DNA from: Nitrospirota bacterium
Lineage (GTDB): Bacteria > Nitrospirota > UBA9217
Direction: 5' to 3'
Assembly (NCBI GenBank): GCA_963754875.1
Contig: CAVWHO010000008.1
Span: forward strand, 128,001-192,000
Length of the DNA stretch: 64,000 bases
The position numbers and the translations under genes were made by a program. This document shows, piece by piece, positions 18,843-43,654 of the stretch (the first letter of the stretch is position 1; each line of letters starts with the position of its first letter). A model generated the notes under the pieces. That model saw only the letters and a program-made list of their open reading frames with translations, was not told where the DNA came from and made no database searches.

Positions 18843-20187
18843 TTGAATAATTCGCTTACACCACGTCAGGTTGTCGAAGAACTGGACAAGTACATTATCG
18901 GCCAGCACAAGGCCAAGCGGGCCGTTGCCATCGCGCTCAGGAACCGTTGGAGACGCCAGCGTTTGTCCGAAGATTTGCGCGATGAAGTAATGCCGAAGAA
19001 CATCATCATGATCGGCCCCACGGGCGTGGGAAAAACCGAGATCGCCCGGAGGCTCGCGAAGCTTGTCCAGGCACCATTCCTCAAGATCGAGGCCTCAAAG
19101 TTTACCGAAGTGGGATACGTTGGACGAGATGTTGACTCGATCGTGCGCGACCTCACTGAGATCGGGATAAACATGGTTAAAAACGAAATGGCCGAGATGG
19201 TGAGAGAAAAAGCAGAGGCCCTGGCCGAAGAGCGGCTGCTTGATCTCCTGCTGCCGCCGCCCAGGATCTCCCCGGGATCGGAAGCCCCGACGTCCGAGCA
19301 GCAGGAACAGCATTCGACGACGCGGGAAAAGCTCAGGCAGCAGCTCCGCGAGGGGAAGCTCGACAGCCGCTCGGTTGAGCTCGAAACGAAAGAAAAAGTA
19401 ATGCCCTTCGGCATCGTCTCTAATGTCGGCATGGAAGAGATCGAGATGAACCTCAAGGAGATGCTGGGAGGACTGCTGCCGGAAAAAACGAAGCGCCGAA
19501 AAGTGAAAGTTCCTGATGGACTGAGGCTCCTCGTGCAGGAAGAAGCCGCAAAGCTCATCGACATGGATAAGGTGACCCGTGAAGCGCTCGAGCGCGTTGA
19601 ACAATCCGGCATTGTGTTCCTCGACGAGATAGACAAGATTGCCGGCCGTGAATCGCACGGTCCGGACGTGTCGCGCGAGGGCGTACAGCGGGACCTTCTG
19701 CCGATCGTCGAAGGCTCGACGATCTCGACTAAATACGGACCGGTCAAAACCGACCATATCCTCTTCATCGCGGCAGGCGCGTTTCATGTGTCCAAACCGT
19801 CGGACCTTATCCCGGAGTTGCAGGGCCGTTTTCCGATCCGGGTTGAGCTTGACTCCCTCGGCAAGACGGATTTCGTTCGTATCTTGACAGAACCTCAGAA
19901 TGCGCTCATCAAGCAGCATGTTGCGCTTATGGCCACGGAGGAAATCACTCTTAATTTCTTCGAGCGATGCCATCGAAGAGATCGCCGGCATAGCAGCCCA
20001 GGTGAACGAGCGGACCGAGAACATCGGAGCGCGCAGGCTTCATACGATCATGGAGAGGCTGCTCGACGAAATCTCGTTCGATGCTCCTGAAAAAAAAGGG
20101 ACCAAGGCCTCGATCAATGCGCAGTACGTACAGGAACGACTGGCTGAGGTTCTGAAGAGCGAGGATCTGAGCAGATATATTCTATGA
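18843..20187 (+). CDS. hslU: ATP-dependent protease ATPase HslU (one frameshift near 19958)
   Basis: [18 protein letters not shown]-terminus ([16 protein letters not shown]...DLSRYIL) continues in another frame after ITLNF. Confidence 0.95.
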
Positions 20188-20236: not shown

Positions 20237-21283
<1,047 letters not shown>

Positions 21284-21434
21284 ATTTATAGTGGGAACAA
21301 ATCAAGAGAGGATGATCATGCATCCTCTTTTTTTGTTCGACGATGCGGCCGAATTGCTCAAGCTCATGCATGGACACCTGATTCTGCACAGGCGGCTCGT
21401 TGACAGCGGCAGGGCAAAGGTGTAATATTTTTTT

Positions 21435-21896
21435 ATGGTTTTTTTAATACCATTCTGCCAAGCCAGGGAAATAACTGTTATCCGCAATGCTGTTCTCATA
21501 TGCCTCATCATTTTCCCCCCGTTTTACTTCAGCAACCCGGCGAACGCGCAGGTCGCTCCATCGGGATACAGCCTCGTTGGAACAATTAAGAGCGGAGATT
21601 TTTCCGGAGCCGTCATCATCATAGCCAAAGAACAGTCCTTTTTCAGATTAAATGAGAAATTGCCGGATGGGTCTCTGGTCGTAAAGGTGCGCGACGACAG
21701 CATTTCACTCAAGGGACCCGACGGGACCCTCTATGATATGTATATTTCCCATGAAAAGACGGTGGGGTCTGTTGCCCCGCCGCCGGCATACACGACTTCA
21801 CCGCAACCGGCGGCCGCGGTAACCAATGTTGGCCCGGACCGGCCAGTTGCCCGATCACGACGTCGGCATGTGCATTCACAGTCGGAATATGAATAG
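21435..21896 (+). CDS. Stand-alone GspC HR-domain-like exported protein (paralog 1)
   Basis: Hydrophobic segment + ANA-Q, then YSLVGTI..GAVI...QSFFRLNEKLPDGSLVVKVRDDSISL, resembling the T2SS GspC HR / PilP domain; paralog at 28522. Confidence 0.55.
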   Translation: MVFLIPFCQAREITVIRNAVLICLIIFPPFYFSNPANAQVAPSGYSLVGTIKSGDFSGAVIIIAKEQSFFRLNEKLPDGSLVVKVRDDSISLKGPDGTLYDMYISHEKTVGSVAPPPAYTTSPQPAAAVTNVGPDRPVARSRRRHVHSQSEYE

Positions 21897-21943
21897 GCAT
21901 TACTTACGGACCTGAGCACTGTAGAACTACTTCCGAATAGCAA

Positions 21944-21978
21944 AGAGGGGTTACGGAAAATTCCGCAACCCCTCTTTC
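21944..21978. terminator. Bidirectional terminator-like hairpin
   Basis: AGAGGGGTTACGG..CCGCAACCCCTCT between convergent genes. Confidence 0.65.
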
Positions 21979-22013
21979 TATGATTATTGTACTGCGCTCA
22001 CGATCTTCTACTA

Positions 22014-22355
22014 CTACAGGCTCGCCTTCCAAACAGACTTGCCCTGACTATCTTGCTCTTTAAAAATCTTAAAAGTCGGCGTAGTCACCATTTGCTTAGT
22101 CTGGCCGTTGATCATATTCACCTTTAAGCTGAGCTTGACTTTTACCGGCCAGAAACCGCCCGCGTCCTTCTTGCCTTTTTCAAGGATTACAATCGGCTCC
22201 GTAAGGCTAAACCCTCCGCTTTTAAGAAAAACACTGTCGTTTATTGCCTTGAGTATTTCCGCATCAGAAGGGCCGAAAAAACGCGAGCAACCCGCTCCGT
22301 TGAGGACAATAGTAAACAACACAAAAGCCACAACAAGTTTTATCCCGTTTTTCAC
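22014..22355 (-). CDS. Small lipoprotein of unknown function (paralog 1)
   Basis: Lipobox GAGC, then FGPSDAEILKAIN; GTG start with AAGGAG; paralog at 29336. Confidence 0.8.
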   Translation of the reverse strand: MKNGIKLVVAFVLFTIVLNGAGCSRFFGPSDAEILKAINDSVFLKSGGFSLTEPIVILEKGKKDAGGFWPVKVKLSLKVNMINGQTKQMVTTPTFKIFKEQDSQGKSVWKASL

Positions 22356-22492
22356 TTCATTATCTCCTTAAACTGACATTATCGCAAAAACTGTTGATTA
22401 ATGGAAAAAGAGAATGCCCGGGCTCACATCCGGGCACTCTCCTCTTCTAATTCTTACCTCTGGCAATGTCACGGTCAGTTCATGCGTCACTA

Positions 22493-23338
22493 TTACCAGG
22501 CTCTCGTTACGTGACAACTTGGCGTGCATGTAGGATAGGGGGGGCCCAGGTTGTAGTTTACATAATCTTGAATCGTAGCTGAAGCTGGCCCTTCCATCGT
22601 CGATGTATTTAAAGACTTAAAATGGCTTAGCACAAGCTTCGATATGTCATGGCAAAAATTGCAGTTTATATTCTGCAGAAACACATGGGTGTAGTGCTGA
22701 CCGGACGCGAAGCTGTTATACTGGGTAGTACCGTAGGAGTGGCACGAGGTACACTGGGTCAGCACATCAATCTTGCCGCTCAACCACACCGGTGTCGTCT
22801 GCCCGCCATGACAGCTCACGTTCGAGCAGGTGCCGTCGGCGTTATGCACTGCGGTGCCGCTCTTTGCACTGTACGTGCTCAGGAACTGCACGTCAGTAAC
22901 GCCGTTATAGTGTTTGTCAGTGCCTGTCCCCGCACCGTTGTGACAGGTATTGCACGCATCAGGCAACGTGACCTGAGGAGCGAAATGACCCTCAACCGAA
23001 TTATGTGCGCCCTCCCTGTTCGGGGCAACGGTACCTGAAGGCGGTATTCCGTGACAGGAGGTGCATCCTGTCATTGTGAGGGGAGAGCCGTTCGTATGGC
23101 AGGATGCGCATGCGACTCTGGAAACACCTCCTGAGAAATCCTCTCCATGGCATTCCATGCAAACGCTCGGATCAGTCTTTGCAGCTGCCGGGTGGCCCGC
23201 AATTAGCCAGTTTGCCGGGTGCTGGTCCTCGTCGAATGGCAAGTTCTCATTCTTCTCACTAGTACCGCACCCCACCAAAACCAGCAGTCCTGCTGCGAGA
23301 AGCAATGCCGCCATCGCGATCTTATTTATCGGTGACAT
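22493..23338 (-). CDS. Multiheme c-type cytochrome lipoprotein (6 CxxCH + CxxxxCH + CxxxCH), ExtD-like position
   Basis: Lipobox LVGC; CMECH, CASCH, CTSCH, CNTCH, CSNVSCH, CTSCH, CNFCH, CTPSCH. Confidence 0.9.
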   Translation of the reverse strand: MSPINKIAMAALLLAAGLLVLVGCGTSEKNENLPFDEDQHPANWLIAGHPAAAKTDPSVCMECHGEDFSGGVSRVACASCHTNGSPLTMTGCTSCHGIPPSGTVAPNREGAHNSVEGHFAPQVTLPDACNTCHNGAGTGTDKHYNGVTDVQFLSTYSAKSGTAVHNADGTCSNVSCHGGQTTPVWLSGKIDVLTQCTSCHSYGTTQYNSFASGQHYTHVFLQNINCNFCHDISKLVLSHFKSLNTSTMEGPASATIQDYVNYNLGPPYPTCTPSCHVTRAW

Positions 23339-23766
23339 GTTCTGCACCTCTCATTATTCGAGCGGCCATGACATTTCATGCATGAAGCCGGGTTGATCCG
23401 ACCGTCGATTTTATGCTGATTGAGATAATCTCCCCGGTGTGGCAGGAACCGTTCCGGATCATCTTTATATTTATCGCTCGGCTTCAGCTCGTCCTTGTGC
23501 GCATGGCAGTCGGAGCAGAACGACTCCGCGTGGCAAACTTTGCAGGTCCCCGACTGCTGTTCTGCGTAAAAGCGATGCCGCGCCGCCCAGTCGCTGGTGT
23601 GGTCCATTGCGGTCCGCCAATCTGTGTGGCAGTCGCTGCAGATCGGGAAACCCGTTACTTCAACAGGATGCGACGTAACGATACTCGCCGTATGCGCACA
23701 GGCGTACAAGCCGATGAGTGCTACGAATACTGTCAATAAAACAATTTTGGTCGTCATCGTTTTCAT
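23326..23766 (-). CDS. Pentaheme c-type cytochrome lipoprotein, ExtC-like
   Basis: Lipobox LYAC; CSDCH, CKVCH, CSDCH, CMKCH, CRTCH. Confidence 0.9.
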   Translation of the reverse strand: MKTMTTKIVLLTVFVALIGLYACAHTASIVTSHPVEVTGFPICSDCHTDWRTAMDHTSDWAARHRFYAEQQSGTCKVCHAESFCSDCHAHKDELKPSDKYKDDPERFLPHRGDYLNQHKIDGRINPASCMKCHGRSNNERCRTCHR

Positions 23767-23768
23767 AA

Positions 23769-25067
23769 TTAAGCCCCTCCTGCGGCGCCAAAATGATAGA
23801 GAAGCTTGACGAAACTCCGGATGTCGCTGTTGAAATCGGGATCATGGGAATATTCCACATCGGCACCGAGTTTCCATGCTTCCGTAAGATCGTACTGGGC
23901 CGCTAGGGACCCGGAATAGGAATCTTTTACGCCGTTAATGGGTTGGGCATAGACTACATCGAGAATATCGGCGGTAAGATCAAACTTTCCGAGCTTCTTA
24001 TAGCCGTATGCCCGGTACTCGTTATATTGCAACCTTGTCGTTTTTCCCTGCATGCGGTGGTACCCCAGGCCGGCACCGCCGGAGCCTTCTGCTGAATACT
24101 TGACCAGACCTCCGTAATAATTGGCGTCGCCTTCAATAGAATAGTCGAAATTTTTGTAATCAGCAACAATGCTCACATTGTCTGTAACCTTGTATGATGC
24201 TGCTTCCCCCAGAATGCGTACCTTTTCATCGTCGATGATAAGCCCGTTGGCCACGGAGAGAGCGCTCGTGGTAGCACGGAAGAAATAATTGTCATAATTG
24301 ATCCATGACGCCGTAGTATCAAGTCTGAGATTAGCGAAAGGCCCCAGCATCAGAACATAGGTATGTTCCATCCAGCCTTTGGTGATGTCGTTATAGCTCG
24401 ACCTGCCGGAAATATCTACCTTGTTCATCAGATGGGCCCAGAGATCAATGCCCTCCTCTTTTCGGTAGTCCTGGTTGTTTTTTTCTTCTTTGAGAGCCGA
24501 TATTCCGATTTTGTACACATCGCCGACCTGGTGAGTCAGACGTCCACCGTAGATCACGTTGTCGCCGGGCGTTTCGATGTTGGTCTCAACCGGGCTGCCG
24601 CCGAATGCCGAGACGCCGAAGCCCCCTTTCAGATCGGTGCGCGCATAGATCCCGTCTACTCGTTCTGCAGCCACACCCTCAAAGACCATCACACGGCCAA
24701 GATTGACCACGGTGTTGTCGGTTTTGCTCTTGAAACTCAAATAAGAATATTGAAGATCGCTGGGCGATTTTCTCCCGAGTTCATCACCGAGAAAATCATA
24801 ATGGATCCACCCCCCGGTATGAAACGAGACAGTTTCATTGCCGATGTCCTGTACTGCGAAATCGAGGTATTCGTAGCCGCCTAGGATTTTTGTACCGTCG
24901 GCCGTCTCCCGTGACTGGAAATACGTATTGGAATTTCCGGTCAGGCTAGCCGCACGGGACTGACCCGGTAAACCCAATGTGATCAGTGACAGCAAGGCCA
25001 TAGCAGATACTATTCGCATGACCAAGGGACCGCTTTTCATTGTTCGCAGCATAATATTACTTCTCAA
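23769..25067 (-). CDS. Outer-membrane beta-barrel porin of a porin-cytochrome conduit, ExtB-like
   Basis: Signal peptide, alternating Y/F/W-rich beta strands, near-terminal KLLYHF; 2 bp from the pentaheme gene. Confidence 0.82.
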   Translation of the reverse strand: MRSNIMLRTMKSGPLVMRIVSAMALLSLITLGLPGQSRAASLTGNSNTYFQSRETADGTKILGGYEYLDFAVQDIGNETVSFHTGGWIHYDFLGDELGRKSPSDLQYSYLSFKSKTDNTVVNLGRVMVFEGVAAERVDGIYARTDLKGGFGVSAFGGSPVETNIETPGDNVIYGGRLTHQVGDVYKIGISALKEEKNNQDYRKEEGIDLWAHLMNKVDISGRSSYNDITKGWMEHTYVLMLGPFANLRLDTTASWINYDNYFFRATTSALSVANGLIIDDEKVRILGEAASYKVTDNVSIVADYKNFDYSIEGDANYYGGLVKYSAEGSGGAGLGYHRMQGKTTRLQYNEYRAYGYKKLGKFDLTADILDVVYAQPINGVKDSYSGSLAAQYDLTEAWKLGADVEYSHDPDFNSDIRSFVKLLYHFGAAGGA

Positions 25068-25297
25068 AATGTTGTCTCCTTTCTAAGAACTGTGCACAAC
25101 GACTTTCGTATCTCTGAAGTGAGATGGTCATAATAACCGATTCTGTAATATCGAGCTAACGCACTTTTATGTGCGCTTGAAGGTGAGAGTATATTTTTCA
25201 TTCAACTCAAATTAGTACAAAGCTGTGAAGGACTACAGAGATATTACCGGCACTATACGCTTGAAACGGTTGATGAAAACATCTGCAAAACGGTCAT

Positions 25298-25326
25298 ACT
25301 ATACAGAAAAACACCTTGCAAATCAA
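25298..25326 (-). promoter_or_regulatory. sigma70-like promoter for the porin-cytochrome operon
   Basis: TTGATT-N17-TATAGT. Confidence 0.45.
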
Positions 25327-25527
25327 GAAAAAAAGGACATGCCTTTCTTACTGAGGCATGTCCTTCGTGAGTGCTGAACCAGTTCTACAGCATGCGTCAA
25401 TATAGATAATAACATCTATTTGCAACTCGTAAAAGCTGGCGGACCCCGTAGGGTCCGCCTGATGTTGAGTTTGGTTCCGGTTTGGCGATTATCATCCAAA
25501 CCTTACTTCAGACCTGTTATTACGATA

Positions 25528-27996
25528 CTAGTTGACCTTGTGCACAACAGCGATGTCTTCTATTGCGCCGTGGCCATGGCATACGAGACACGATTCGATT
25601 GCCGGAGAAGGAGCCTGGTCACGCCTTTCGTAGAACTGGCCGCCGTTTGCCTCCATGTGGTTCACATCAGTCGCAAGATCGTGGCATGCAACGCAGGTCG
25701 CTGTGATCGGCGACTGTACGAGGTTGCTGCCGCTGCCAGCCGTCAAGATGCCGTCGCTGGTGATAGAGGGGCCTGCTCCATAATTAGTTACAAGGTCGAC
25801 GTACGGTGAATTCTTAAACCCGGCAAGTGAATCCGTGTTCGTGTACGTCTTTGCAGACACCAGGACATTCAGCATTCCGCTCATAAGAGCCGGGGTGTAT
25901 TGGGTTGCGCTGAAGTCGTAGGTGCCGGGCAAATGACACTTCTGGCAGTCGTTCAGGATTGCCGGGTACAGGAGCAGCGAGAAATTATCGTCAATAGCTA
26001 CAGCGTGCCAGGTAAACGGCACTGAACGCTTGCTTGCTCCGTGAATGCCATGGACCCAGGTCCTGAATGATGCGGACCATCCGTTGCTTGACTGGTTGGG
26101 AGTATGGCAGGCCGCGCAAATGGCGATGCTATAGTTGCCGCCGTGGAAATTAGGCACGGTGCCAAGCTGCTTATGACAAGAATCGCACCTAGCGGGGTCG
26201 ACGATCACGCGCCGAGCGGTGTAACCGGTCGCAGTCTTCATCGCTGGCACTGCGAGGACGTTCACTCCACCTACGTTGGGAGAATCCTTCATGATTGCCG
26301 TGACCATGCTTGCATTCGAAGGAATATTCAGATAGCCGGCACTGATGGTGCCGCCGCTCAGGACAGCGGTGTAGAGGCCGTTCACCGGGCCAGTCAGTGT
26401 GCCTTTTGTCCCGTCCCAAATATTCTGAAGTGCTAATGAACTGTGACCGCTATTCCAGTCGGACGGAGCAGTGATGCCATCCTGCGGTACAGAGTATGCA
26501 GCAATGAACGTCGGGCCGGCGGTGGTGGTGAGGCCGGTTATCATGTTCGACGGGTTATTTATAGCATCAAAGGTATTCAGAACCACGTCCGAACCGTTCT
26601 GCTGAATCTTGAACACCACGGACATAACGTTGCTGCTAACAGAAGCTGATGTGACGACGTAGGTGATGGGTGCAGTAGACGTCGGGAAGGAAGCACCTGT
26701 TAACGCGTTGGTTTCTGTTCTTGTAATGTCGTGATTAAACAGGATATCCGGAGCATCATGACAGCCTGCGCAAACACCGTCGACCTTAGGGCCTGCTGGG
26801 TGAGCTTTAAAACCAGTTGGTACGGTTGCTGCCCAGCTGATATTGTCATGGCAGGAGCCGCAGGCCTTGATGCTGGGTTTAGTCAGATAGTTGCCGCCGT
26901 CGGTCCCGACGTGACAGGTTGTGCAGTTTCTAATGTCCTGAGGATAGCCGATATTGTTCGGGAAAAAGTGGCCGTCATTGATGCCATACCCCTGGAGCTG
27001 GAGGTTCTCACCCATGTGGGCTTTATGGATCATAGTCACGAACTCCATCTGGGCATAGGTGGCCGTTCCATTGCTGAGGAGCCATGTGCTGCCGTTCGGA
27101 GCCTTCGCGTCGATGTCCGGGTTAGTCAAATTACCGCTAGCATCGGCAGTAGACACCGAGCGGCCCGTTGATTCCATCTGCGGGTTATGGCACATCACGC
27201 AATATTTCGTGACTTGGCGTCCGCCATGGCCGGGCTGGCCGGGTTTAAAGCCTGTGCCGGTAACATCGAGTGAAGTGTTGCCGAGCTTCGTGTGGCAGCC
27301 GTTGCAGGCAGTCTCACTCACGATGTCCCTGGTATCGGTGACGGGTGACCCATTGGGAACAAAGGTATAGACAATGTTCACCGGGTGGGTTATCGGCAGC
27401 GTAGGAGTAACGCCCGGAACGTTGCCGGAAATCTGGACCGCTATCCGGTGCGTGGCAGCAGGGTCAAAGGTGATATTGGAATTCGCAAATGTGTACACAT
27501 AGGTACCGTCGCCATTGTCAACCAGATTTGCCGTGAGGCCCGTGCTGGTCGGCAAAGACTGGGGGCTCGAATCCAGGAGGTAGTTGCTCCAGGCGTTGGT
27601 AACGGAATCTGTGGGGTCAGTTGCAAGAGTTGCGATTACCAGCTTCGTATAGTTGGTATTCGCTGCGTTCGACGGGCTTGCTACGCCGAGGCCGGTAACC
27701 CCGCGGCCGTTCTGATCGACAACCTTGAAATTCACAACCGGCTGCGCAGCCATCGTAACGCTGGTAATTGTGCCGGTCATTGTGAGCGCTACCATGTCGT
27801 CCGCGGACAGAGTATTGATATTCACTGTGTTGCCGCCATTTGTTCCATTTGTTCCATTTGTTCCATTTGTACCGTTCACGCCATTCGCGCCGTTGCTGCC
27901 GTCGCTGCCTTTGCATCCTGCTACGGCAACTATGGCAACAAGAAGCAACAGCACGAGCAACAACGTACTACATTTACCTTTGAAGATATGTTGCAT
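25528..27996 (-). CDS. OmcA/MtrC-type decaheme c-type cytochrome lipoprotein (copy 1)
   Basis: Lipobox VAGC; 10 CxxCH arranged 5 + heme-free domain + 5; (GxN)n linker. Confidence 0.9.
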   Translation of the reverse strand: MQHIFKGKCSTLLLVLLLLVAIVAVAGCKGSDGSNGANGVNGTNGTNGTNGTNGGNTVNINTLSADDMVALTMTGTITSVTMAAQPVVNFKVVDQNGRGVTGLGVASPSNAANTNYTKLVIATLATDPTDSVTNAWSNYLLDSSPQSLPTSTGLTANLVDNGDGTYVYTFANSNITFDPAATHRIAVQISGNVPGVTPTLPITHPVNIVYTFVPNGSPVTDTRDIVSETACNGCHTKLGNTSLDVTGTGFKPGQPGHGGRQVTKYCVMCHNPQMESTGRSVSTADASGNLTNPDIDAKAPNGSTWLLSNGTATYAQMEFVTMIHKAHMGENLQLQGYGINDGHFFPNNIGYPQDIRNCTTCHVGTDGGNYLTKPSIKACGSCHDNISWAATVPTGFKAHPAGPKVDGVCAGCHDAPDILFNHDITRTETNALTGASFPTSTAPITYVVTSASVSSNVMSVVFKIQQNGSDVVLNTFDAINNPSNMITGLTTTAGPTFIAAYSVPQDGITAPSDWNSGHSSLALQNIWDGTKGTLTGPVNGLYTAVLSGGTISAGYLNIPSNASMVTAIMKDSPNVGGVNVLAVPAMKTATGYTARRVIVDPARCDSCHKQLGTVPNFHGGNYSIAICAACHTPNQSSNGWSASFRTWVHGIHGASKRSVPFTWHAVAIDDNFSLLLYPAILNDCQKCHLPGTYDFSATQYTPALMSGMLNVLVSAKTYTNTDSLAGFKNSPYVDLVTNYGAGPSITSDGILTAGSGSNLVQSPITATCVACHDLATDVNHMEANGGQFYERRDQAPSPAIESCLVCHGHGAIEDIAVVHKVN
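27837..27870 (-). repeat. 9-bp tandem repeat encoding (GTN)n linker
   Basis: CCATTTGTT x3 plus a degenerate copy. Confidence 0.8.
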
Positions 27997-28186
27997 TTTG
28001 TTTCCCCTTTCTTTATTTAGAGTCTATTTACCAGCTCACTGCTTTACTTACGTCTTATCGCCGCTTTACTGCTCTTCCTGCAGCAGCAATGTTATCTGAT
28101 ATTTATGCACATCTGCCACAATATATTTGTGTTTATAGCAATAAATATCGTAAAGTTTCAAATTATCGTAAAACCCGTCTGAATAT

Positions 28187-28202
28187 TGCAACTAAAATGC
28201 CA
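28187..28202 (-). promoter_or_regulatory. sigma-54 -24/-12 promoter of decaheme copy 1
   Basis: TGGCATTTTAGTTGCA (GG-N10-GC). Confidence 0.8.
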
Positions 28203-28220
28203 AAATGCAGTTTTATTAAA

Positions 28221-28303
28221 AAACAGATAATTAGCAGCAATATGTTGCATTTTATATTACGAATTCAGTGTCATTTCGCTCAACTCATGTGCGTTTTCGC
28301 TCA
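28221..28303. promoter_or_regulatory. IHF-like site and two enhancer-like (UAS) boxes
   Basis: AAACAGATAATTA (28221-33); AGTGTCATTTCGCTCA (28267-82); TGTGCGTTTTCGCTCA (28288-303). Confidence 0.6.
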
Positions 28304-28521
28304 TTATTATCTACTGGCGTTGGTTTACCCAAGAACAAGTCAAAAGTGATACAAATGATCCATCGACGCAAGCGAATGTTTTTAGTGCAGATAGGGAATA
28401 GAGGACTTTGTCAGTGTTTCTAACTGACACCGCTATTATTGCTTTTAACGGACTAAGCGGCGATGCAGTTGAGCCCTCGCTCGTATTGACATATGAAAAC
28501 AAAGAGGTTATGATTCGTCTG

Positions 28522-29004
28522 ATGAATGGAGAGGGTATTCATAAACAATCCCCCATAAAAAATCAACCTGAAGGCAATCGAGAACTTCTGACCTTCTCCA
28601 CCTTGGTGTTTTTTTTATCCTTGTGCTTTTTCAATACAGCGGACGCTCAGGCAACTAATCAATCAGGCTACAGCCTCGTCGGAACAATACAGAGCCGGAA
28701 TTTTTCAGGAGCGGTTATCACTGTAGCAAAAGGCGAACAGTCTTTTTATAGACTGGGCGACAAACTGCCGGATGGGTCGCAAATCGTTAAGGTGCGGGCG
28801 GATACTATTTTGCTCAAGGTCGCAGACGGATCGACGTATGAAATGTATATACTCCACGAGACGAAGGTAACGGCAGCGCTGCCCTTTTCGCCGCTCGATC
28901 CGTTCGCGGGAAAAGTATGGACGCCCCCCGAAAAACGACCATTAAGTGCATATGAAAAACGACGTCAAAAACGGCTCGGCACGCGAAGTTCAGACGATGA
29001 ATAG
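28522..29004 (+). CDS. Stand-alone GspC HR-domain-like exported protein (paralog 2)
   Basis: ADA-Q then SGYSLVGTIQS..GAVI..EQSFYRLGDKLPDGSQIVKVRADTILL; start placed downstream of TTGACA-N17-TATGAT (28486-28514). Confidence 0.55.
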   Translation: MNGEGIHKQSPIKNQPEGNRELLTFSTLVFFLSLCFFNTADAQATNQSGYSLVGTIQSRNFSGAVITVAKGEQSFYRLGDKLPDGSQIVKVRADTILLKVADGSTYEMYILHETKVTAALPFSPLDPFAGKVWTPPEKRPLSAYEKRRQKRLGTRSSDDE

Positions 29005-29335
29005 GGGCGCTGTTTTTCAAGTTCGGCTGCCACGGCAGTGGCTGAAAAAATAAGAGGCCGTAAACACGCCAGACTGTGTCTTCTCAATCAGATTGACCTC
29101 CCATCCCCCAGCCATCGAGCAGGTTCCATACGCTAGGCGGATCAAAAAAAGACCCGGAAGTTTCCCCGGGCCTTCCAAAAATCACGGTCTGTTACCAGAA
29201 ACATGCTGCAGAAATATTTACCGATGCAAAAAAAGGCTATTAGAATCTGCGATTCACAGTATGTCTGAAAAAAGACCGACAGCTGACGTTGTGGATGGAT
29301 GCCGCTCTCGATATCCTGTGTGATTTTGATAAGGT

Positions 29336-29683
29336 TTACGAACCGAATTTCACCTTCCAGACAGTATGTCCCTTATCGTCTTTAGATTTAACCAGGTTAT
29401 AAACAGGCGTTTTCTCAACCGGCGCGGACATTTGCTTGTTCCCTATCTCATAAGAAAATATTGCTTTAACTTGGACAGTCCACGAGCCGTCCTTATTAGG
29501 GCCGTCCTTTTTCAGGACCACGATGGGTGCTTGCATGGTAAGATCTTTTAAGGCTCCGCTTTCATTAATAGCTTTGATCACTTCTGCATCCGAGGGTCCA
29601 AATAGCTTGGAGCAACCAGAAAAACTGAACACAGCTACTATTAATAGCAGGAATGCAACATAATATATTGTTTTGGCTCTCAT
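29336..29683 (-). CDS. Small lipoprotein of unknown function (paralog 2)
   Basis: Lipobox FSGC, FGPSDAEVIKAIN...PIVVL...W.V.VK...VWK. Confidence 0.8.
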   Translation of the reverse strand: MRAKTIYYVAFLLLIVAVFSFSGCSKLFGPSDAEVIKAINESGALKDLTMQAPIVVLKKDGPNKDGSWTVQVKAIFSYEIGNKQMSAPVEKTPVYNLVKSKDDKGHTVWKVKFGS

Positions 29684-29779
29684 TTCATTCTCCCTCGTAA
29701 CTCGGAACGTTTTCCCAACAGACAGTAAGTGCAACCAAATCATTATCCTTCATTGCCATTGAAACTAGGACCGCTTATA

Positions 29780-29807
29780 AAAAAGGGCGGACCTTTCGGT
29801 CCGCCCT
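29780..29807 (-). terminator. Intrinsic terminator after decaheme copy 2
   Basis: AGGGCGGACC-TTTC-GGTCCGCCCT with T-run on the minus strand. Confidence 0.75.
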
Positions 29808-29848
29808 GCGAAACAGTCTTCGAAATCGAGTTACAGTTTCAAAAGTAA

Positions 29849-32263
29849 TTACGGTGTATCGGCAATATCAACATCCTTGCCAGGTCCGTGACAAACCACA
29901 CAAGACTCGGGTTGATTTACCGTACCTGACGTGCCAACTACGAGTGAAGTGAGGCTGCCGCCCATCGTGGTCATGTGATCAGTTGCTCCGGGCACATCGC
30001 CATGGCATCCATAGCAGGGGATTTCATACAGATTGCTCTTGTATGAAGTATTGCCTGAATAATGGCAGATAGTACACCGCTTGATGTTCGCCGGGTACGT
30101 AATGGTGGACGTCGGGAGACTCTCCACGTTCCAAGTTTGTGGCACTGACCAGTCAATGACCGAGATGTCGCCATTCGCTTGGGCGGAATGAACGGCATGT
30201 ACACGGTTATTAATGGGTGCTGTCGATGCGCTAAGGCCTATGGAGGAATTACCGCGGGCCCCTACGTAGTGGCAGGCGTTACAGTCATCGGTATCGAACT
30301 TCGCGGCATGGTCATCGCGGTGCATAATCTCGTTGCCATGGCATCTCAGACAGCTGCTCTTGTTGTTGTTATCGCCGGCAATCCTCAGATCCTCGGTCGC
30401 ACTGCCAACCTGGAACTGTGTTATACCGACGGAAACGACCTGGTTAGGAACGGTACCACAACCAGAGGCCAACGTCTGTGTGTAGGTATTGCCGAGATAG
30501 ACACGGACAAAGTAGGTGCCCGGCAATGTGCCTGCTGGGATCGGCTGCAGCGCATAGGTCCAGCCCGTTGCCGTTGGCGTTATGTTAATATTAGTATTGG
30601 TGGTCGTACCGGTTGAAGTACTACACGACGACCTGCTCGCGGAAAAATAGGTGCCCAGCAGGGGGATCGACTTCTTGCCCGCCGGAAGGAAGCTCGGCCT
30701 GGGAGAGGTGCGGGGACCGTAGACATACATGTTGGCTAGGGCCAGGCTGTTGGGGTCGTAGTTTCCTACTTGATGACCGGCGGCTGCGGTGAGACCAGTC
30801 GGCACAGCGCTGCCATCAGGGTTGGTCAAGGTGATCGTGACGGTCGGTGTTTCACCTGAGACAAAATAGCTGCCGTTTGACGGGGTGCTCAAGGAGATGA
30901 CGATGTTATATTCCTGAGTATCCGGCGTACTAAGCGTCGTTACCACACCGGTCACTGGTGCGACAAACGTCGGCAGCGTAGTGCTGTGGACGGTCACGAT
31001 GTCCGTAAAATCACCAGCAGTTCCGAGGCCATTATGGCAGCCGGCGCACTGTACATCGGTTTTTGCACCAACGGGAACGGCGGTTTTTGTCGTAAACGTG
31101 CCCGTGTTATGCGTAAACGTCGCGGCGACGGTGCTCGTGGCCGCAGTGACGACGTTCGTGGTATGGCAGGAAGCGCAGACCCGGCCGGTCGGATGGGTCT
31201 TCCAGTTGCTGAGCGCCGTCAAGTCACCGGGGGCCGAGCCGCTGGGATCGCTATGACAGACATCGCACTTCTGGATCGGCTGCGGATAGGTGACAGGGTT
31301 TTCAACAGCTGCCTCGAGAATGTCATCCTGGTCAGTCCACGTTGAACCGTGGATCTCGTGAATGAAGACCGGGAGGTCGGCGGCGTCAGCTGCCATAAAG
31401 CCCGTGAGATGCTTGGGCGCGGAGCCGTACAATGCACTGTGGCAGAAGTCGCACTCACGGATGTCATTGCGGCTGTTGGCATGGGCCGCATTGTCCATAT
31501 ACGGACCGTGGCACTTCTGACAGGCCTGGATGGTCACGAACTGGCGCAGGGAAGCGATCGAGGTAGCAGCATTGCCAGCACCGGGATCACCAGCGATATC
31601 CAGGATGCCGACTGACTTATTGTATCCAACTGGCGGACTGCTCAACTCTATCGCTACACGCTTCTTGTTGGCAGCCGCATAACCGGCATTGTTGTAGCCC
31701 GGCCACGTTGAACCGAAGGGAGTAACAAAGGTATAAGCGTAATTGCCGTTGGTGGCATCGCTTACGTCAAGATTGTTGGTGGCAGGAGTTGTAAATGTTG
31801 ATGATGTTGCCACCGCTGCTGCTTTACCTGGCGTTTCCGAAACCCACATCTCGTAGTAATCGGTTGAAAAGGTGTTATCACCGGTGCCTGCAGGGACCAG
31901 GTCGGCGATCTTAAAGCTCAGATTGCTATTGGTAATCGTAGTGACAGGCTTATTACCGGTTGTGGTTGCAACATGGAAAGCAACCTTTGCGACACCGCCG
32001 ACGTTCGTCACGGAAGTGATCGTTGTGGTGATGTCCACCGCACCTTGGAGAAGGCTGTGCGTGCCGAAAAGATTGGCTGCCGGTCCTGCCGGACCCGCTG
32101 GGCCCGTTGAGCCGGTTGGGCCGGTTAAGCCGGGCAAGCCGTTTGTGCCTGCAGCGCCGTTTGAGCCGTCGCTGCCCTTACATCCGCCTAGGACGGCTAC
32201 AGTAAGGAGCACCAACATCAATACCAACAACTTTGCAACTTTGCTCTTTGTGAAACTTTGCAT
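29849..32263 (-). CDS. OmcA/MtrC-type decaheme c-type cytochrome lipoprotein (copy 2)
   Basis: Lipobox LGGC followed by KGSDGSNG as in copy 1; collagen-like GxY linker; 10 CxxCH in 5+5 layout. Confidence 0.9.
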   Translation of the reverse strand: MQSFTKSKVAKLLVLMLVLLTVAVLGGCKGSDGSNGAAGTNGLPGLTGPTGSTGPAGPAGPAANLFGTHSLLQGAVDITTTITSVTNVGGVAKVAFHVATTTGNKPVTTITNSNLSFKIADLVPAGTGDNTFSTDYYEMWVSETPGKAAAVATSSTFTTPATNNLDVSDATNGNYAYTFVTPFGSTWPGYNNAGYAAANKKRVAIELSSPPVGYNKSVGILDIAGDPGAGNAATSIASLRQFVTIQACQKCHGPYMDNAAHANSRNDIRECDFCHSALYGSAPKHLTGFMAADAADLPVFIHEIHGSTWTDQDDILEAAVENPVTYPQPIQKCDVCHSDPSGSAPGDLTALSNWKTHPTGRVCASCHTTNVVTAATSTVAATFTHNTGTFTTKTAVPVGAKTDVQCAGCHNGLGTAGDFTDIVTVHSTTLPTFVAPVTGVVTTLSTPDTQEYNIVISLSTPSNGSYFVSGETPTVTITLTNPDGSAVPTGLTAAAGHQVGNYDPNSLALANMYVYGPRTSPRPSFLPAGKKSIPLLGTYFSASRSSCSTSTGTTTNTNINITPTATGWTYALQPIPAGTLPGTYFVRVYLGNTYTQTLASGCGTVPNQVVSVGITQFQVGSATEDLRIAGDNNNKSSCLRCHGNEIMHRDDHAAKFDTDDCNACHYVGARGNSSIGLSASTAPINNRVHAVHSAQANGDISVIDWSVPQTWNVESLPTSTITYPANIKRCTICHYSGNTSYKSNLYEIPCYGCHGDVPGATDHMTTMGGSLTSLVVGTSGTVNQPESCVVCHGPGKDVDIADTP

Positions 32264-32504
32264 ACTTTTTTTCTCCTTTTCTTTAAGTTTTTTGAACCAC
32301 GATCCTGCAAACTACATTTGAATCTGTTGCTGAAAAATCTGGGTATGAATTGAATAATGCCTAGCCACGGTTCCGACTCGACCTTGTATCGGCATTCAGT
32401 GATTTACCGCTGACTTACTGCTCCGCGTGTATAACTCACAGAAGCCAACTTCGCCTGGTTTAATGACAAAATTATGTATAACTATTTAGTTGCGGTCATG
32501 TAGA

Positions 32505-32520
32505 TGCAACTCGAATGCCA
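32505..32520 (-). promoter_or_regulatory. sigma-54 -24/-12 promoter of decaheme copy 2
   Basis: TGGCATTCGAGTTGCA. Confidence 0.8.
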
Positions 32521-32537
32521 AGCAATAAATAACTTAA

Positions 32538-32621
32538 AATCAAATATTTAGCAGTATGTTTATATATGTGCAAATAGAATTTAGTACTTTTTCGCTCAGA
32601 CTTATTGTAGGTTTTCGCTCA
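32538..32621. promoter_or_regulatory. IHF site and two enhancer-like (UAS) boxes
   Basis: AATCAAATATTTA matches WATCAANNNNTTR; AGTACTTTTTCGCTCA (32583-98); TGTAGGTTTTCGCTCA (32606-21). Confidence 0.62.
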
Positions 32622-33581: not shown

Positions 33582-36575
33582 ATGCGGGGAAATGGCCGAA
33601 CCCTGTTCTTTTTTATTTTTACTGCTTCCGGATTTGCCGGGCTCATCTACGAATCCATCTGGTCGCACTACTTGAAGCTTTTTCTCGGCCATGCTGCCTA
33701 TGCTCAGACCCTGGTGCTCACCGTATTCATGGGCGGCATGGCGCTCGGCTCCTTGCTCTGCGCGCACTACTCGAAACGATGGGGCAACCTGCTCCTCGGT
33801 TATGCACTGGTAGAAGCGATCATCGGCATCTGCGCAGTGCTCTTTCATCCGCTCTATGTTCAATTTATCGAACTGGCGTATACGAAATTGATCCCCGGTC
33901 TTGGATCGCCTGCCGCGGTAACGATCTTCAAGTGGACAACGGCAAGCCTGTTCATCCTTCCTCAGTCAATCCTTCTCGGCATGACCTTTCCCCTCATGAC
34001 TGCAGGCGTCATTAGACGGTTTCCACAGAACGTCGGTGCAACTGTTGCCATGCTTTACTTCACGAACAGCATCGGGGGCGCCGTAGGCGTCCTTGCCGGC
34101 GGATTTCTTTTCATCGCCTGGTGGGGACTCCCGGGCACGCTGGGCATAGCAGGTGTCATCAACATTGTCGTGGCAGCGATCGTCTGGCGGAACGTTCGTG
34201 GGGACAAGCCCCTTGCCCAGCAAACAGCGAAGACGGTTGAGAGCGGCACCGATGTTGGCACGGCCTATACCTATCGGGCGCTGCTCGGAGTGGCGCTTCT
34301 GACCGGCCTATCGTCATTCATCTATGAGATCGGCTGGATACGCATGCTAAACCTGGTCCTGAGCAGTTCCACCCATGCTTTCGAACTCATGCTGTGCGCC
34401 TTTATTACGGGACTCGCATTGGGAGGTTTGTGGATACGGCGCCGCATCGATGGCTTACAGCAGCCTGTCCGGCTCCTTGCCTTTGTGCAGATGGCCATGG
34501 GGGTGCTGGCATTGGCAACCCTGCCCCTCTATGGGCATACCTTTGAGTTCATGGCGTGGCTTATCGGCAACTTGGAAAAATCCGCCCTGGGGTATGCCGC
34601 TTTCAACATAGCAAGCAACAGCATAGCACTGGTCATCATGTTGCCCGCCACCTTCTGCGCAGGAATGACCCTGCCGCTTATCACCGCTATCCTGCTTCGC
34701 GGCGGACAGGGCGAAAAAAGCATCGGTGCGGTTTACGCATTCAATACCATCGGGTGCATCATCGGCATTTTTATTGCCGTGCACGTTGCGATGCCTATGC
34801 TCGGGCTTAAAGGGATGCTCGGCCTTGGCGCCGGCATAGACATCGCGCTGGGTCTGGCGCTCGCCTGGTGGGTCTTCCCCTCGGCCCGCATTCCGGCAAT
34901 AGCAACGGCAGTGGGCGCCGCAGTGCTCCTGATCGCCATGACCGGTGTTACCTTCGAACAGAACAAGATGGCCTCGGGAGTCTATCGCTCAGGTGTTTTG
35001 CTCGATCCCGGGAAAGATGTCGTTGTTTACCATCACGATGGCAAGACTGCCACAGTCTCCGTAACGAAAACCGGCCCCTTCCTTACCATCAAGACGAACG
35101 GCAAATCCGATGCGAGCATCAGTTTGTCCGCTGAAAGTAACTTATACGACGATGAGTCTACCCAAATCATGCTTGGCGCCATGCCGCTTGTATTGCATCC
35201 GCATGCCAAGACGGCCGCGGTCATCGGCTGGGGATCCGGTATGACGACCTCAGCCCTCTTAAGTACACCGCAGCTCGCTCGTGTGGATTCCGTGGAGATC
35301 GAGCCGACCATGATTAAAGCCGCCATGCTCTTTCGTCCCCGCGTGGACCGTGCTTACATGGACACCCGAAGTCATATTCACATCGAAGATGCCAAGACCT
35401 TTTTTTCTCTTTACCACCAGAAATATGACATCATTGTTTCGGAGCCTTCCAACCCATGGGTCAGCGGCGTGGCAGGCCTTTTTTCAAAGGAGTTCTACAA
35501 AAGGATAAAGGACCATTTGCACGAAGACGGGCTGCTGGTCCAGTGGCTGCAGCTGTATGAGATCGACATGCCCCTTGTGGCCTCGGTATTCGATGCGCTT
35601 TCCTCCCAGTTCTCCGACTACGCCGTCTACGTCACGGACGATGCCGATATCATCATTCTTGCGCGTCCTTCGGGCGCGATTCCCGGGCCCGATCCGGCGG
35701 CAGTGAGCGCGAAGGGGCTTTCGAACGAATTGAAACGGGTCGGGATCAATGGTCTTCAGGACATTCTCGTCCGCAGAATCGGAAATAAACGCGCCCTGCA
35801 GCCTCTGTTCGACAGCTACAATGTACCGGCCAATTCCGATTACTACCCCCTGCTGGATCTTTATGCTGCCCGCGCGCTGTTTATGAAGACTACAGTAAAT
35901 GACCTTACGAATAATCCGGGTTTACAACTTCTGCCTGCCGTGGAGATGCTCGGACAGGAGCCGGAAAACCTGAAAAACGCAGAAATAAGCGATGCGGCTT
36001 TTAAGCGGTCGGCCAAAATCCATCTCGCGAACATGTTGTACGGATATATACTATATGGCCGCCCCTGGAAATTGGATCTTCCAGATGGGCGTTCGGCCGA
36101 GGATCTGCAACAATACGCGGATAACGTCAGGCAGGAGCTATCGGGTTGTTCCGGGAAAATGTCCTCTGACGACTGGTGGGATGGGACGTTCTACATTATG
36201 GCTCAGTGCATCTTGCCCTATTCATCGCCCGATCAATTGGCGCGCTTCTGGCAGAGGGCTGAATCTTCTTCCTGTTGGTCGCAGATATCTCCGTCTCAGC
36301 AGGACTTTGTAAAGCTGCTCAAGGCCGTGGACGGCCGAAATGCACCGATGATGGCTCAAACCGCTCGCATCCTCCTGGAAGAAATGCCCAGGGTTCATCC
36401 GGTACTCGAAGGATACATTCTGGCTGCCGGCATGCTGGGCGAACTTTCCCGTGGGAAAAAACAGGCAGCGCATGCATTATGGGAACAATACAGAAACCGC
36501 TTGAACGCAGAAAACTCGCAGACATTGCTGATGCGCCTGCTCGTCGCTCATGCCGAAAAAAATGCCCAAAAATGA
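33582..36575 (+). CDS. Fused MFS-like membrane domain / spermidine synthase-like protein
   Basis: Many TMs (SGFAGLIYE..W repeats), then AVIGWGSGMT, VEIEP, EDAK, DIIVSEPSNPW. Confidence 0.85.
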   Translation: MRGNGRTLFFFIFTASGFAGLIYESIWSHYLKLFLGHAAYAQTLVLTVFMGGMALGSLLCAHYSKRWGNLLLGYALVEAIIGICAVLFHPLYVQFIELAYTKLIPGLGSPAAVTIFKWTTASLFILPQSILLGMTFPLMTAGVIRRFPQNVGATVAMLYFTNSIGGAVGVLAGGFLFIAWWGLPGTLGIAGVINIVVAAIVWRNVRGDKPLAQQTAKTVESGTDVGTAYTYRALLGVALLTGLSSFIYEIGWIRMLNLVLSSSTHAFELMLCAFITGLALGGLWIRRRIDGLQQPVRLLAFVQMAMGVLALATLPLYGHTFEFMAWLIGNLEKSALGYAAFNIASNSIALVIMLPATFCAGMTLPLITAILLRGGQGEKSIGAVYAFNTIGCIIGIFIAVHVAMPMLGLKGMLGLGAGIDIALGLALAWWVFPSARIPAIATAVGAAVLLIAMTGVTFEQNKMASGVYRSGVLLDPGKDVVVYHHDGKTATVSVTKTGPFLTIKTNGKSDASISLSAESNLYDDESTQIMLGAMPLVLHPHAKTAAVIGWGSGMTTSALLSTPQLARVDSVEIEPTMIKAAMLFRPRVDRAYMDTRSHIHIEDAKTFFSLYHQKYDIIVSEPSNPWVSGVAGLFSKEFYKRIKDHLHEDGLLVQWLQLYEIDMPLVASVFDALSSQFSDYAVYVTDDADIIILARPSGAIPGPDPAAVSAKGLSNELKRVGINGLQDILVRRIGNKRALQPLFDSYNVPANSDYYPLLDLYAARALFMKTTVNDLTNNPGLQLLPAVEMLGQEPENLKNAEISDAAFKRSAKIHLANMLYGYILYGRPWKLDLPDGRSAEDLQQYADNVRQELSGCSGKMSSDDWWDGTFYIMAQCILPYSSPDQLARFWQRAESSSCWSQISPSQQDFVKLLKAVDGRNAPMMAQTARILLEEMPRVHPVLEGYILAAGMLGELSRGKKQAAHALWEQYRNRLNAENSQTLLMRLLVAHAEKNAQK

Positions 36576-42352: not shown

Positions 42353-42435
42353 TGGTGCGAGAGGGGGGACTTGAACCCCCACGGTCACCCACTGGCTTCT
42401 AAGACCAGCGCGTCTGCCAGTTCCGCCACTCTCGC
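42353..42435 (-). tRNA. tRNA-Leu(TAG)
   Basis: GCGAGAG/CTCTCGC acceptor, CTGGT-CTTAGAA-GCCAG, long variable arm, CCA. Confidence 0.93.
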
Positions 42436-42524
42436 AGTCATGATAAAAAGAAAGCAGTGAGCATTGTGCAGCATCCCGCTCAACGGATTCCTGCCCATTA
42501 CCCACTGCTCCCTGATTTTTGTTA

Positions 42525-42600
<76 letters not shown>

Positions 42601-42724
42601 GTAAGTACTGAGAGTTCCACGTGCAAAGCGGCTACATTATACTTATCTTTGTATCTGGATGCAACAAAAAATTAAAAGCGAAGAGAAATATTTGAGGGAC
42701 TTTAGCTCTTCAGTTGTAATGATA

Positions 42725-42801
42725 TGGTGCGCCCGGCGGGAATCGGACCCACGACCTTTGGCTTCGGAGGCCAACGCTCTATCCAGCTGAGCTACGGGCG
42801 C
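42725..42801 (-). tRNA. tRNA-Arg(CCG)
   Basis: TTGGC-CTCCGAA-GCCAA; T-loop reads TCCGA instead of TTCGA. Confidence 0.9.
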
Positions 42802-42814
42802 ATGCAAAAACAAA

Positions 42815-42900
42815 CTCCGACGGACGATAGATGACTCTCGCTCCGCTCGTCAGGATGACAGACGATAATTCGTCCATCTTCCCTCGTTTCTTTCGTTGCT
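42815..42900. repeat. Heptamer-based palindromic interspersed repeat
   Basis: Reverse complement CGTCTGTC..GAGCGGAGCGAGAGTCATCTATCGTCC resembles CGTCCATC..GAGCTGAGCGAGCGGTCGTCCATCGTCC at 18114-18160. Confidence 0.55.
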
Positions 42901-42901
42901 T

Positions 42902-42932
42902 CATTTTTGGTGCGCCCGGCAGGAGTCGAACC
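42902..42932 (-). repeat. Direct repeat of the tRNA-Arg(TCG) 3' end (att-like)
   Basis: 31 bp identical to 43084-43114. Confidence 0.9.
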
Positions 42933-43089
42933 ATGCAGCCGTCGCCCGTAAAGGGCTCCCCAGAGAGGGCCTGCCCCCTCTGGTCTCTCCCCCGAATCGC
43001 AGGGGAGTCTCTCCCCTGCACCCCTCAGGCCGCAGGAGAACGACATGAATAGTTGCAGCCGAACGCTATGCTCACTTTCGTTGCATTTT

Positions 43090-43166
<77 letters not shown>

Positions 43167-43223
43167 AGTTACTGTCCTCAGAAAAACTGAGACGGCCGCA
43201 TTGGCCGTCTCTCTATAAGAAAA

Positions 43224-43300
43224 TGGGGTGAGCGACGGGGCTTGAACCCGCGGCCACCAGGGCCACAACCTGGAGCTCTACCAACTGAGCTACGCCCACC
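43224..43300 (-). tRNA. tRNA-His(GTG) with G-1
   Basis: CCAGG-TTGTGGC-CCTGG; C discriminator; CCA. Confidence 0.95.
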
Positions 43301-43422
43301 ATGAATTTAATTGAGATTGTGGATTTCGATATGCAAAATTTATTTTAATGCGTTGCCTGCTCTTTGTCAATAAACAATCAAACAATCGGACTTCGGCAAT
43401 CGTATTTCCCGGGGAATTCAAT

Positions 43423-43499
43423 TGGCGCGCCTGAAGGGATTCGAACCCCTGACCCACAGCTTAGAAGGCTGTTGCTCTATCCACCTGAGCTACAGGCGC
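43423..43499 (-). tRNA. tRNA-Arg(TCT)
   Basis: ACAGC-CTTCTAA-GCTGT; CCA. Confidence 0.95.
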
Positions 43500-43577
43500 A
43501 TTCAAAATGCGGAATTCGGAATGGCGAATTCGGAATTTGAAAGTCCGTAGCCCATGCCTCTCATTCCGCATTTAAAT

Positions 43578-43654
43578 TGGTCGGGGCGAGAGGATTTGAA
43601 CCTCCGGCTTTCTGCTCCCAAAGCAGACGCGCTACCGGGCTGCGCCACGCCCCG
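43578..43654 (-). tRNA. tRNA-Pro(TGG)
   Basis: CGGGGCG acceptor, TCTGC-TTTGGGA-GCAGA; CCA. Confidence 0.95.

Follow-up and report, generated by a model that had tools for sequence, protein, structure and literature searches.

An ExtEFG-like porin-cytochrome triad beside two OmcA/MtrC-like decaheme lipoproteins in an uncultured Nitrospirota bacterium

Mtr and porin-cytochrome (Pcc) electron conduits are usually described as unrelated inventions. An MtrCAB conduit is recognized by mtrA and mtrB clustered with mtrC (Baker 2022, PMC8805035), and surveys of MtrC have retained only genomes with MtrAB (Baker 2022, PMC8805035; Shaw 2025, PMC12133095). Among the Pcc conduits, OmbB-OmaB-OmcB conducts electrons across liposomes (PMC4282303), and in a strain left with extEFG alone, Fe(III) oxide reduction is kept at 60% and Mn(IV) oxide reduction at 87%, extEFG being co-transcribed with a hydrogenase (Otero 2018, PMC6148476). 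We describe here a locus in a 64,000-nucleotide stretch of DNA (the window; contig CAVWHO010000008.1, positions 128,001 to 192,000) from an uncultured Nitrospirota bacterium whose genome is 90% complete. In this locus a porin-cytochrome triad similar to ExtEFG is accompanied by two OmcA/MtrC-like decaheme lipoproteins, two short GspC-like genes and two small lipoprotein genes (Table 1).

An earlier note on this DNA, made from the sequence alone, had called the layout undescribed, which was overstated. Shi 2014 (PMC4245776) listed a tandem of porin, 5-heme protein, CX3-4CH cytochrome and 10-heme protein in Geobacter sp. M18 (GM18_3461-3469), taking the 10-heme protein for a porin-cytochrome fusion, and the legend to Fig. 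9 of Otero 2018 (PMC6148476) mentions extBCD lacking extA, as well as a decaheme lipoprotein upstream of extE; neither passage names the decaheme as MtrC-type or mentions Nitrospirota. The 5 + (2+1+2) heme spacing of the GM18 10-heme protein suggests that it may be MtrC-type, and the Geomonas locus L095 has tandem repeats like those of GM18_3461-3469. A Holophaga metagenome-assembled genome (MAG) expresses extEFG and mtrF (bioRxiv preprint 10.1101/2024.02.22.581617). Shaw 2025 (PMC12133095), reporting that Mtr, Omc and Pcc occur together in Desulfobacterota, places MtrC-family genes outside Proteobacteria, often apart from mtrAB. Our literature search, which was thin on subscription papers, found no description of the layout in Nitrospirota or of the GspC-like genes.

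For comparison, the reference extABCD was identified as locus L122, in which all four primer stretches of supplement 1 of PMC6148476 match exactly; extEFG (L138) and omb/oma/omc (L139) were identified by gene lengths and a constant coordinate offset from the table in that paper. The triad has the order of G. sulfurreducens ExtEFG (GSU2726-2724), namely porin, pentaheme lipoprotein and a cytochrome with CX4CH and CxxCH motifs, with no ExtA. The porin shares 31% identity with ExtE (E 1e-56) and 28% with ExtB (E 1e-35), and its family profile scores 480 bits with ExtE, 433 with ExtB and 134 with OmbB (E 3.6e-41). The pentaheme is 46% identical to ExtF, 38% to ExtC and 29% to OmaB; hhalign gave 98.6% against OmaB, aligning it with the first five OmaB hemes. 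Pairing of a homologous outer-membrane barrel of 18-22 strands with an adjacent 5-14-heme cytochrome of the OmaB/ExtC/ExtF family is among the marks of a Pcc conduit, and both are present here. These profile results disagree with the statement of Otero 2018 (PMC6148476) that the Ext and OmcB complexes share no component homology, and side with the single Pcc family of Shi 2014.

The 284-aa third protein has its CX4CH motifs at residues 174 and 274. It matches the C-terminal module of ExtG with 44% identity over 245 aa (E 1e-51, 167 bits) and shares the N-terminal module of ExtG too, compared to a score of only 17 bits with ExtD. Among 64 related porin loci, the pentaheme was found in 62 (the other two end at contig edges), an ExtG-like match in 56, an ExtD match in nine and ExtA in none; the host genome gave only a 26% match of ExtA to a 16-heme repeat protein. 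Since the third gene is ExtG-like and ExtA was not found, the triad is, on homology, of the ExtE/ExtF/ExtG type and not ExtBCD; neither an upstream soluble dodecaheme ExtA nor ExtD as the third gene, which define ExtABCD, is present. ExtEFG is natively without ExtA, and therefore no partner need be missing from the locus. A distant kinship with ExtD is possible, given that ExtD matched the third genes of the nine relatives at E<1e-5. The locus differs from ExtEFG in its third gene (284 aa vs 691), its Nitrospirota host, its separate porin subfamily and the decahemes, GspC-like genes and small lipoproteins that flank the triad. It differs from OmbB-OmaB-OmcB in that OmaB is soluble with 8 hemes and the window protein is a 5-heme lipoprotein, with decahemes and no OmcB.

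Further members of these families were observed elsewhere. ExtG in L138:3120-5195 (-) starts with a lipobox-type signal (LALWGC), though it is predicted to be periplasmic in PMC6148476. Porin-free ExtG-family cytochromes are encoded in the host at contigs C13:41395-44014 and C17:177708-179282 (motifs 13+1, 2+1 and 8+2), and a sigma54-like site lies upstream of a 159-aa one. In the Nitrospirota locus L063:4070-6260, an OmbB-like porin and a 9-heme OmaB-like cytochrome precede a decaheme and an ExtE-type triad.

The porin (427 aa from an alternative ATG at 25052) matched no Pfam or NCBIfam family. It was modelled as a 22-strand barrel (mean pLDDT 82, pTM 0.70) with beta1 directly after the signal peptide, compared to 26 strands in MtrB (Shaw 2025, PMC12133095). 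The best structural matches were TonB-receptor barrels minus their plug (FyuA, Z 19.5, rmsd 4.7, 348 residues aligned), with MtrB at Z 15.2, rmsd 7.0 and 327 aligned. Foldseek returned generic barrels only, the porin profile had no significant match in the PDB, and PDB searches with single sequences of the five main proteins gave nothing significant. A quick tree of 79 porins placed the window porin in a 68-row clade of Nitrospirota and Geobacteraceae (SH-aLRT 99), and left the branching of the ExtE clade and ExtB open; both porin subfamilies occur in Geomonas genomes. By this placement, the window porin, the one member of its family in the host genome, is probably not a strict ExtE orthologue and appears to form part of a subfamily of its own.

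Both decahemes are, from their sequences, members of the OmcA/MtrC family, similar to Shewanella MtrC, OmcA, MtrF and UndA: each has ten CxxCH motifs arranged 5+5, PF22113 domains and a lipoprotein signal. Decaheme 1 scored 366 bits with TIGR03507 (cut-off 209) and decaheme 2 fell just below the cut-off at 198 bits; a profile of decaheme 2 (48 homologues and the paralogue) matched MtrF (3pmq, E 2.5e-57) as well as UndA and MtrC in the PDB. The Cys pair of MtrC is closely spaced, unlike the pair of decaheme 2, which is 55 residues apart, and decaheme 1, which has no domain III cysteines. A recent tandem duplication of the decahemes was ruled out, the two being 25% identical; their signal-peptide regions (27887-28015 and 32154-32285) share 70% DNA identity despite this. 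No MtrA or MtrB was found with them: PF11854 (MtrB) had no match in the 90%-complete host genome, TIGR03508 matched only partial or repeat proteins there, and the clustering of mtrA and mtrB with mtrC that marks MtrCAB is absent.

Much of the inventory in the earlier note was borne out. We recovered its 10+10+5+6 = 31 CxxCH motifs and two CX4CH motifs in four minus-strand cytochrome ORFs; in each of the four a hydrophobic N-terminus is followed by a lipobox-type Cys (C28, C28, C23 and C27, a pattern match alone), in agreement with its lipoproteins. Its 432-aa beta-barrel is supported by the plugless model, the position directly after argB by the argB match, the lack of an ExtA/MtrA-type gene by the searches above, and its guess of a Nitrospirota or Desulfobacterota host by the identity of the host. 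The pairing of an Ext-like triad with Mtr-like decahemes held; the ExtBCD label gave way to ExtG. The two GspC HR-domain genes and the two small lipoproteins, all four within the span that it gave, and the sigma54-like sites had been overlooked.

Table 1. Features of the locus, ordered by position in the window
Feature	Position	Strand	Basis
argB; conserved locus anchor, flanking and outside the conduit	20315..21283	+	TIGR00761, 254 bits
Sigma70-like promoter of GspC-like gene 1	21400..21428	+	consensus 10/12; sequence match alone
Stand-alone GspC HR-domain protein 1; signal-peptide-like N-terminus, charged tail, no PDZ	21435..21896	+	PF11356, E 0.022
Small lipoprotein 1, 113 aa	22014..22355	-	41% identity to copy 2; invariant Cys after signal
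Short ExtG-like lipoprotein cytochrome, 284 aa, 6 CxxCH + 2 CX4CH	22493..23347	-	identity to ExtG; TIGR01904
Pentaheme lipoprotein of the ExtF/ExtC/OmaB family; likely barrel plug	23326..23766	-	identity; hhalign
ExtE/ExtB/OmbB-family outer-membrane barrel, 432 aa	23769..25067	-	homology; 22 predicted strands, no plug
Terminator-like 9-bp hairpin and T run between decaheme 1 and porin	25438..25459	-	read from the sequence; not in the scanner's list
Decaheme lipoprotein 1, 822 aa, 5+5 hemes, Gly-X-X linker	25528..27996	-	TIGR03507; PF22113 x2
Sigma54-like GG-N10-GC site, 191 bp before decaheme 1	28187..28202	-	pattern
Stand-alone GspC HR-domain protein 2; start likely near 28522	28408..29004	+	PF11356, 31.5 bits (cut-off 27)
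Sigma70-like site of GspC-like gene 2	28486-28514	+	consensus 11/12
Small lipoprotein 2, 115 aa; predicted helix and curved sheet	29336..29683	-	AlphaFold2 pLDDT 85.6
Terminator-like hairpin after decaheme 2, 10-bp stem and T run	29784..29807	-	scanner
Decaheme lipoprotein 2, 804 aa, 5+5 hemes, extra Cys547/Cys602 pair	29849..32263	-	TIGR03507; PF22113 x2
Sigma54-like site, 242 bp before decaheme 2	32505..32520	-	pattern

We examined how often porin and decaheme occur together in the 64 genomes of the host's order. After the 44 TIGR03507 rows were merged by hand, 34 decaheme genes remained in 27 genomes; the porin profile, which found a porin in 49 genomes, gave 65 strong and 12 distant loci. 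For 28 of the decahemes a strong porin is within 10 kb; one is near a distant porin and five are elsewhere. Twenty-five of the 64 genomes have a decaheme within 10 kb of the porin, and all 27 decaheme carriers have a strong porin. PF11854 matched in 10 of the 64 genomes and at full length in four, one of which carries a decaheme; one further carrier has a weak partial match. MtrAB is absent in 26 of the 27 carriers, in contrast to the survey of Shaw 2025 (PMC12133095), which was limited to genomes with full MtrCAB. Among the related porin loci, the decaheme profile matched 33 of 64. Five cultured Geomonas strains (G. diazotrophica Red69, G. azotofigens Red51, G. edaphica Red53, G. anaerohicana Red421 and G. 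paludis Red736) have the layout; in Geobacteraceae loci the decaheme is sometimes upstream and sometimes downstream of the triad, and argB was not found.

The closest named loci to the window are in Nitrospirota MAGs, followed by Geobacteraceae. The porin is present in 13 of 14 other genomes of the host genus, and argB is present at 27 of the 64 related porin loci, all 27 of them Nitrospirota. Because argB and the porin are conserved across related genomes, the conduit core is vertically inherited in place beside argB, with changing neighbours. Locus L045 has ~80% DNA identity to the window from GspC-like gene 1 through decaheme 1, whereas in loci L048, L052 and L057 it is decaheme 2, with lipoprotein 2, that lies upstream of the porin; from these arrangements, the window therefore carries both alleles, with the core and two allelic decaheme cassettes. 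The junction between decaheme 1 and GspC-like gene 2 is bridged by contigs of two other runs, in which other contigs join the porin directly to lipoprotein 2. The bridging contigs argue against a chimeric assembly at this junction, with no piece spanning the whole stretch.

An AT-rich island, which the spacers had suggested to the earlier note, was ruled out: spacer GC (0.37-0.48) is ordinary for the genome (intergenic median 0.46, quartiles 0.43-0.50, n=1233), and only one of the eight spacers falls below the genome's 10th percentile. No porin or cytochrome remnants were found in five spacers checked. Rfam revealed no riboswitch in the window and gave only seven tRNA genes, clustered at 42356-43654 (-). 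A 997-aa fused gene, similar to the major facilitator superfamily (MFS) and spermidine synthase, lies at 33582-36575 (+); L052, L069 and L100 also have homologues of it close to the porin. On the other side, hslU (18843-20090) stops early, with 415 aa vs ~447 in relatives; long-read indel errors are possible.

With a hairpin behind each of them, the two decahemes probably do not share a transcript with the porin operon. The sites before the decahemes resemble the sigma54 consensus. The pattern TGGCA-N6-TTGCW, picked after the alignment was inspected, has only two matches in the window, both before the decahemes on the coding strand, compared to 0.20 expected; it also precedes the decaheme in 5 of 30 cases among relatives, and the porin in none of 64. 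A short shared motif starting TGAGCGAAA lies upstream of both decahemes (~28260-28290 and 32575-32600) and is a possible activator site.

Each decaheme has a GspC-like gene and a small lipoprotein gene in its vicinity. GspC-like protein 1 is 58% identical to copy 2 and 47% identical over 49 aa to the host's own gspC product, and hhalign of the family profile against host GspC gave 98.9%; the profile had no significant match in the PDB. The HR domain of GspC is present, and the proteins are short (153-198 aa), with no PDZ-bearing full-length form in a gsp operon: GspC_delta scored 24 (cut-off 150), and the true gspC is on host contig C11. From 99 profile rows we picked 38 short copies by hand, of which 26 lie within 10 kb of a porin, seven beside a full gspC and five elsewhere; these counts are biased, since copies from porin loci went into the profile. 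A decaheme occurs at 18 of 23 porin loci with a short copy vs 9 of 42 without one, and BLAST found no GspC-like genes in the Geobacteraceae loci. HR-only paralogues stand beside the true gspC at G019:C15:916666, G111:C12:45288, G149:C60:19603, G148:C65:2661, G125:C91:17359, G127:C9:51131 and G128:C197:5063, which suggests a general accessory of the type II secretion system (T2SS) in the host's order.

None of 63 homologues of small lipoprotein 1 has a Pfam family. The best fold match for small lipoprotein 2 was a weak one to NTF2/cystatin-like proteins (Z 6.1, rmsd 2.4, 71 aligned); Foldseek gave nothing at E<=0.001, Pfam was weak and the Atlas returned only unnamed clusters. The small lipoproteins might conceivably act as pilotins. 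Homologues lie near a porin in 23 of 36 cases; of the 20 with the best scores, 19 have a decaheme nearby. We do not assert a one-to-one pairing of GspC-like, lipoprotein and decaheme types, as it is clear in four of 17 loci (L045, L050, L053 and L057) and mixed or ambiguous in the rest.

The host genome has two OmcA/MtrC genes and six c7-type trihemes (TIGR04257), a homologue of the ExtKL (seleno)cytochrome (441 bits, contig C13:139974-140981) and gspC, D, E, F, G and K-like genes. Contig C19:100727-112000 carries dsrA above cut-off, a dsrB-sized second match and DsrJ. A narG-like gene (C20:86314-89868) is in frame-shifted pieces, for which long-read indel errors are possible. Contig C8:392254-410280 (L140) holds a Geobacter-like nanowire locus with two hexahemes, a 756-aa barrel-like protein, a 1957-aa protein and 26- and 16-heme cytochromes; one of the hexahemes is an OmcS homologue (6ef8, E 1e-95).

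On balance, and with moderate confidence, we propose that the triad and the two decahemes likely form one outward electron path to minerals, built of mixed known parts. The periplasmic c7 trihemes would charge the pentaheme, so that ExtA or MtrA would not be needed. The pentaheme, as an OmaB homologue, would plug the 22-strand barrel and conduct electrons through it. In the model it would be near plug size, with 123 mature residues and five hemes vs the ~135-residue plug outside the FyuA/BtuB alignments; Shi 2014 (PMC4245776) proposes that 5-heme and 6-heme proteins suffice as a wire. The length-variable ExtG-like lipoprotein might prolong the wire outside the cell, and the separately promoted decahemes might act as exchangeable OmcA-like terminal reductases of Fe(III)/Mn(IV) oxides, humics or partner cells. 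The T2SS, which exports MtrC and OmcA in Shewanella, would export the lipoproteins, possibly aided by the locus-encoded GspC HR-domain proteins.

Several points weigh against such a path. Gene content, homology and conserved linkage were observed; contact, topology and direction are proposals. ExtG is predicted to be periplasmic by Otero 2018 (PMC6148476), which would reverse the step placing it outside, and, without partners docked on both faces, a wire of five hemes may not be long enough. The porin belongs to a separate subfamily, with ExtE and ExtB as sisters of open order, so ExtEFG phenotypes may not transfer. The decahemes are uncoupled from the porin operon by the hairpins and by promoters of their own. 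A TIGR03507 decaheme occurs at just 27 of the 65 strong porin loci in the order, and six of the 34 decahemes are away from a strong porin. The linkage counts describe and do not test, and they overstate, as kin are not independent. The OmcS locus with its 756-aa barrel-like protein could charge the decahemes, and the host genome is 90% complete.

In an inverted topology analogous to MtrCAB, the ExtG-like protein would be a periplasmic collector, the pentaheme would span the barrel and a decaheme would dock on it. This would agree with the periplasmic prediction for ExtG, remove the short-wire problem and suit the frequent position of the decaheme gene immediately upstream of the porin. We nonetheless regard it as unlikely, given that the ExtG-like protein is the most variable member (140-896 aa across related loci), as is typical of exposed parts (PMC6148476), that porin-free ExtG-like paralogues occur on contig C13 and that many porin loci are without a decaheme. 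A conduit of the ExtBCD type with its ExtA or MtrA encoded elsewhere is extremely improbable in view of the ExtG-like third gene and the failure to recover ExtA from the 64 related porin loci or, beyond the 26% match, from the host genome; the homology of porin and pentaheme to ExtB and ExtC, the separation of extA from extBCD in some genomes (Otero 2018, PMC6148476) and the incomplete assembly would speak for it.

The current might instead run inward, with sulfate or nitrate reduction driven by electrons that Fe(II), an electrode or a partner cell supplies. Heme wires are in general reversible, and the host has dsrA and the narG-like pieces. We hold this to be quite unlikely, however, as ExtEFG, OmbB-OmaB-OmcB and MtrC/OmcA were studied as reductive (PMC6148476, PMC4282303), mtr clusters of Fe(II) oxidisers tend to lack an mtrC-type gene (Shi 2014, PMC4245776), and OmcS is present in the host. 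It is likewise distinctly improbable that the genes are mere neighbours in a recombination hot spot between argB and mscS, the decahemes being charged via the OmcS locus or serving as triad-independent adhesins or shuttle reductases. The decahemes' own promoters and terminators, the transposase-sized ORFs that interrupt some relatives' loci and the recurrence of the MFS-spermidine synthase gene in the interval are consistent with this, as is Soares 2024 (PMC11492766), in which 57 MtrC/OmcA-like Desulfuromonadia proteins are called not porin-associated; yet the pairing recurs in Geobacteraceae loci without a detected argB and with the decaheme on either side of the triad.

As a whole, the locus is a genuine and conserved combination of known components with unexplained secretion-related accessories; part of it is already published for Geobacteraceae, and it is extended here to a Nitrospirota order. 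Surveys that require MtrAB therefore miss MtrC-type proteins tied to ExtE-type porins. As the layout occurs in five cultured Geomonas strains, genetic testing is feasible now; the barrel and five hemes are a small candidate wire for structure work and engineering, and the locus is a lead on how the T2SS selects surface cytochromes. We tentatively put forward a broader idea that we consider rather doubtful: Mtr and Pcc parts might be interchangeable, with a five-heme plug in a 22-strand barrel as a minimal wire charging MtrC-fold reductases without MtrAB, and each decaheme might travel with a GspC HR adaptor for T2SS loading and a lipoprotein chaperone under sigma54. If true, the GspC HR protein would be the first secretion adaptor dedicated to a surface cytochrome, and the dsr-bearing Nitrospirota would be a large unrecognised group of mineral respirers.

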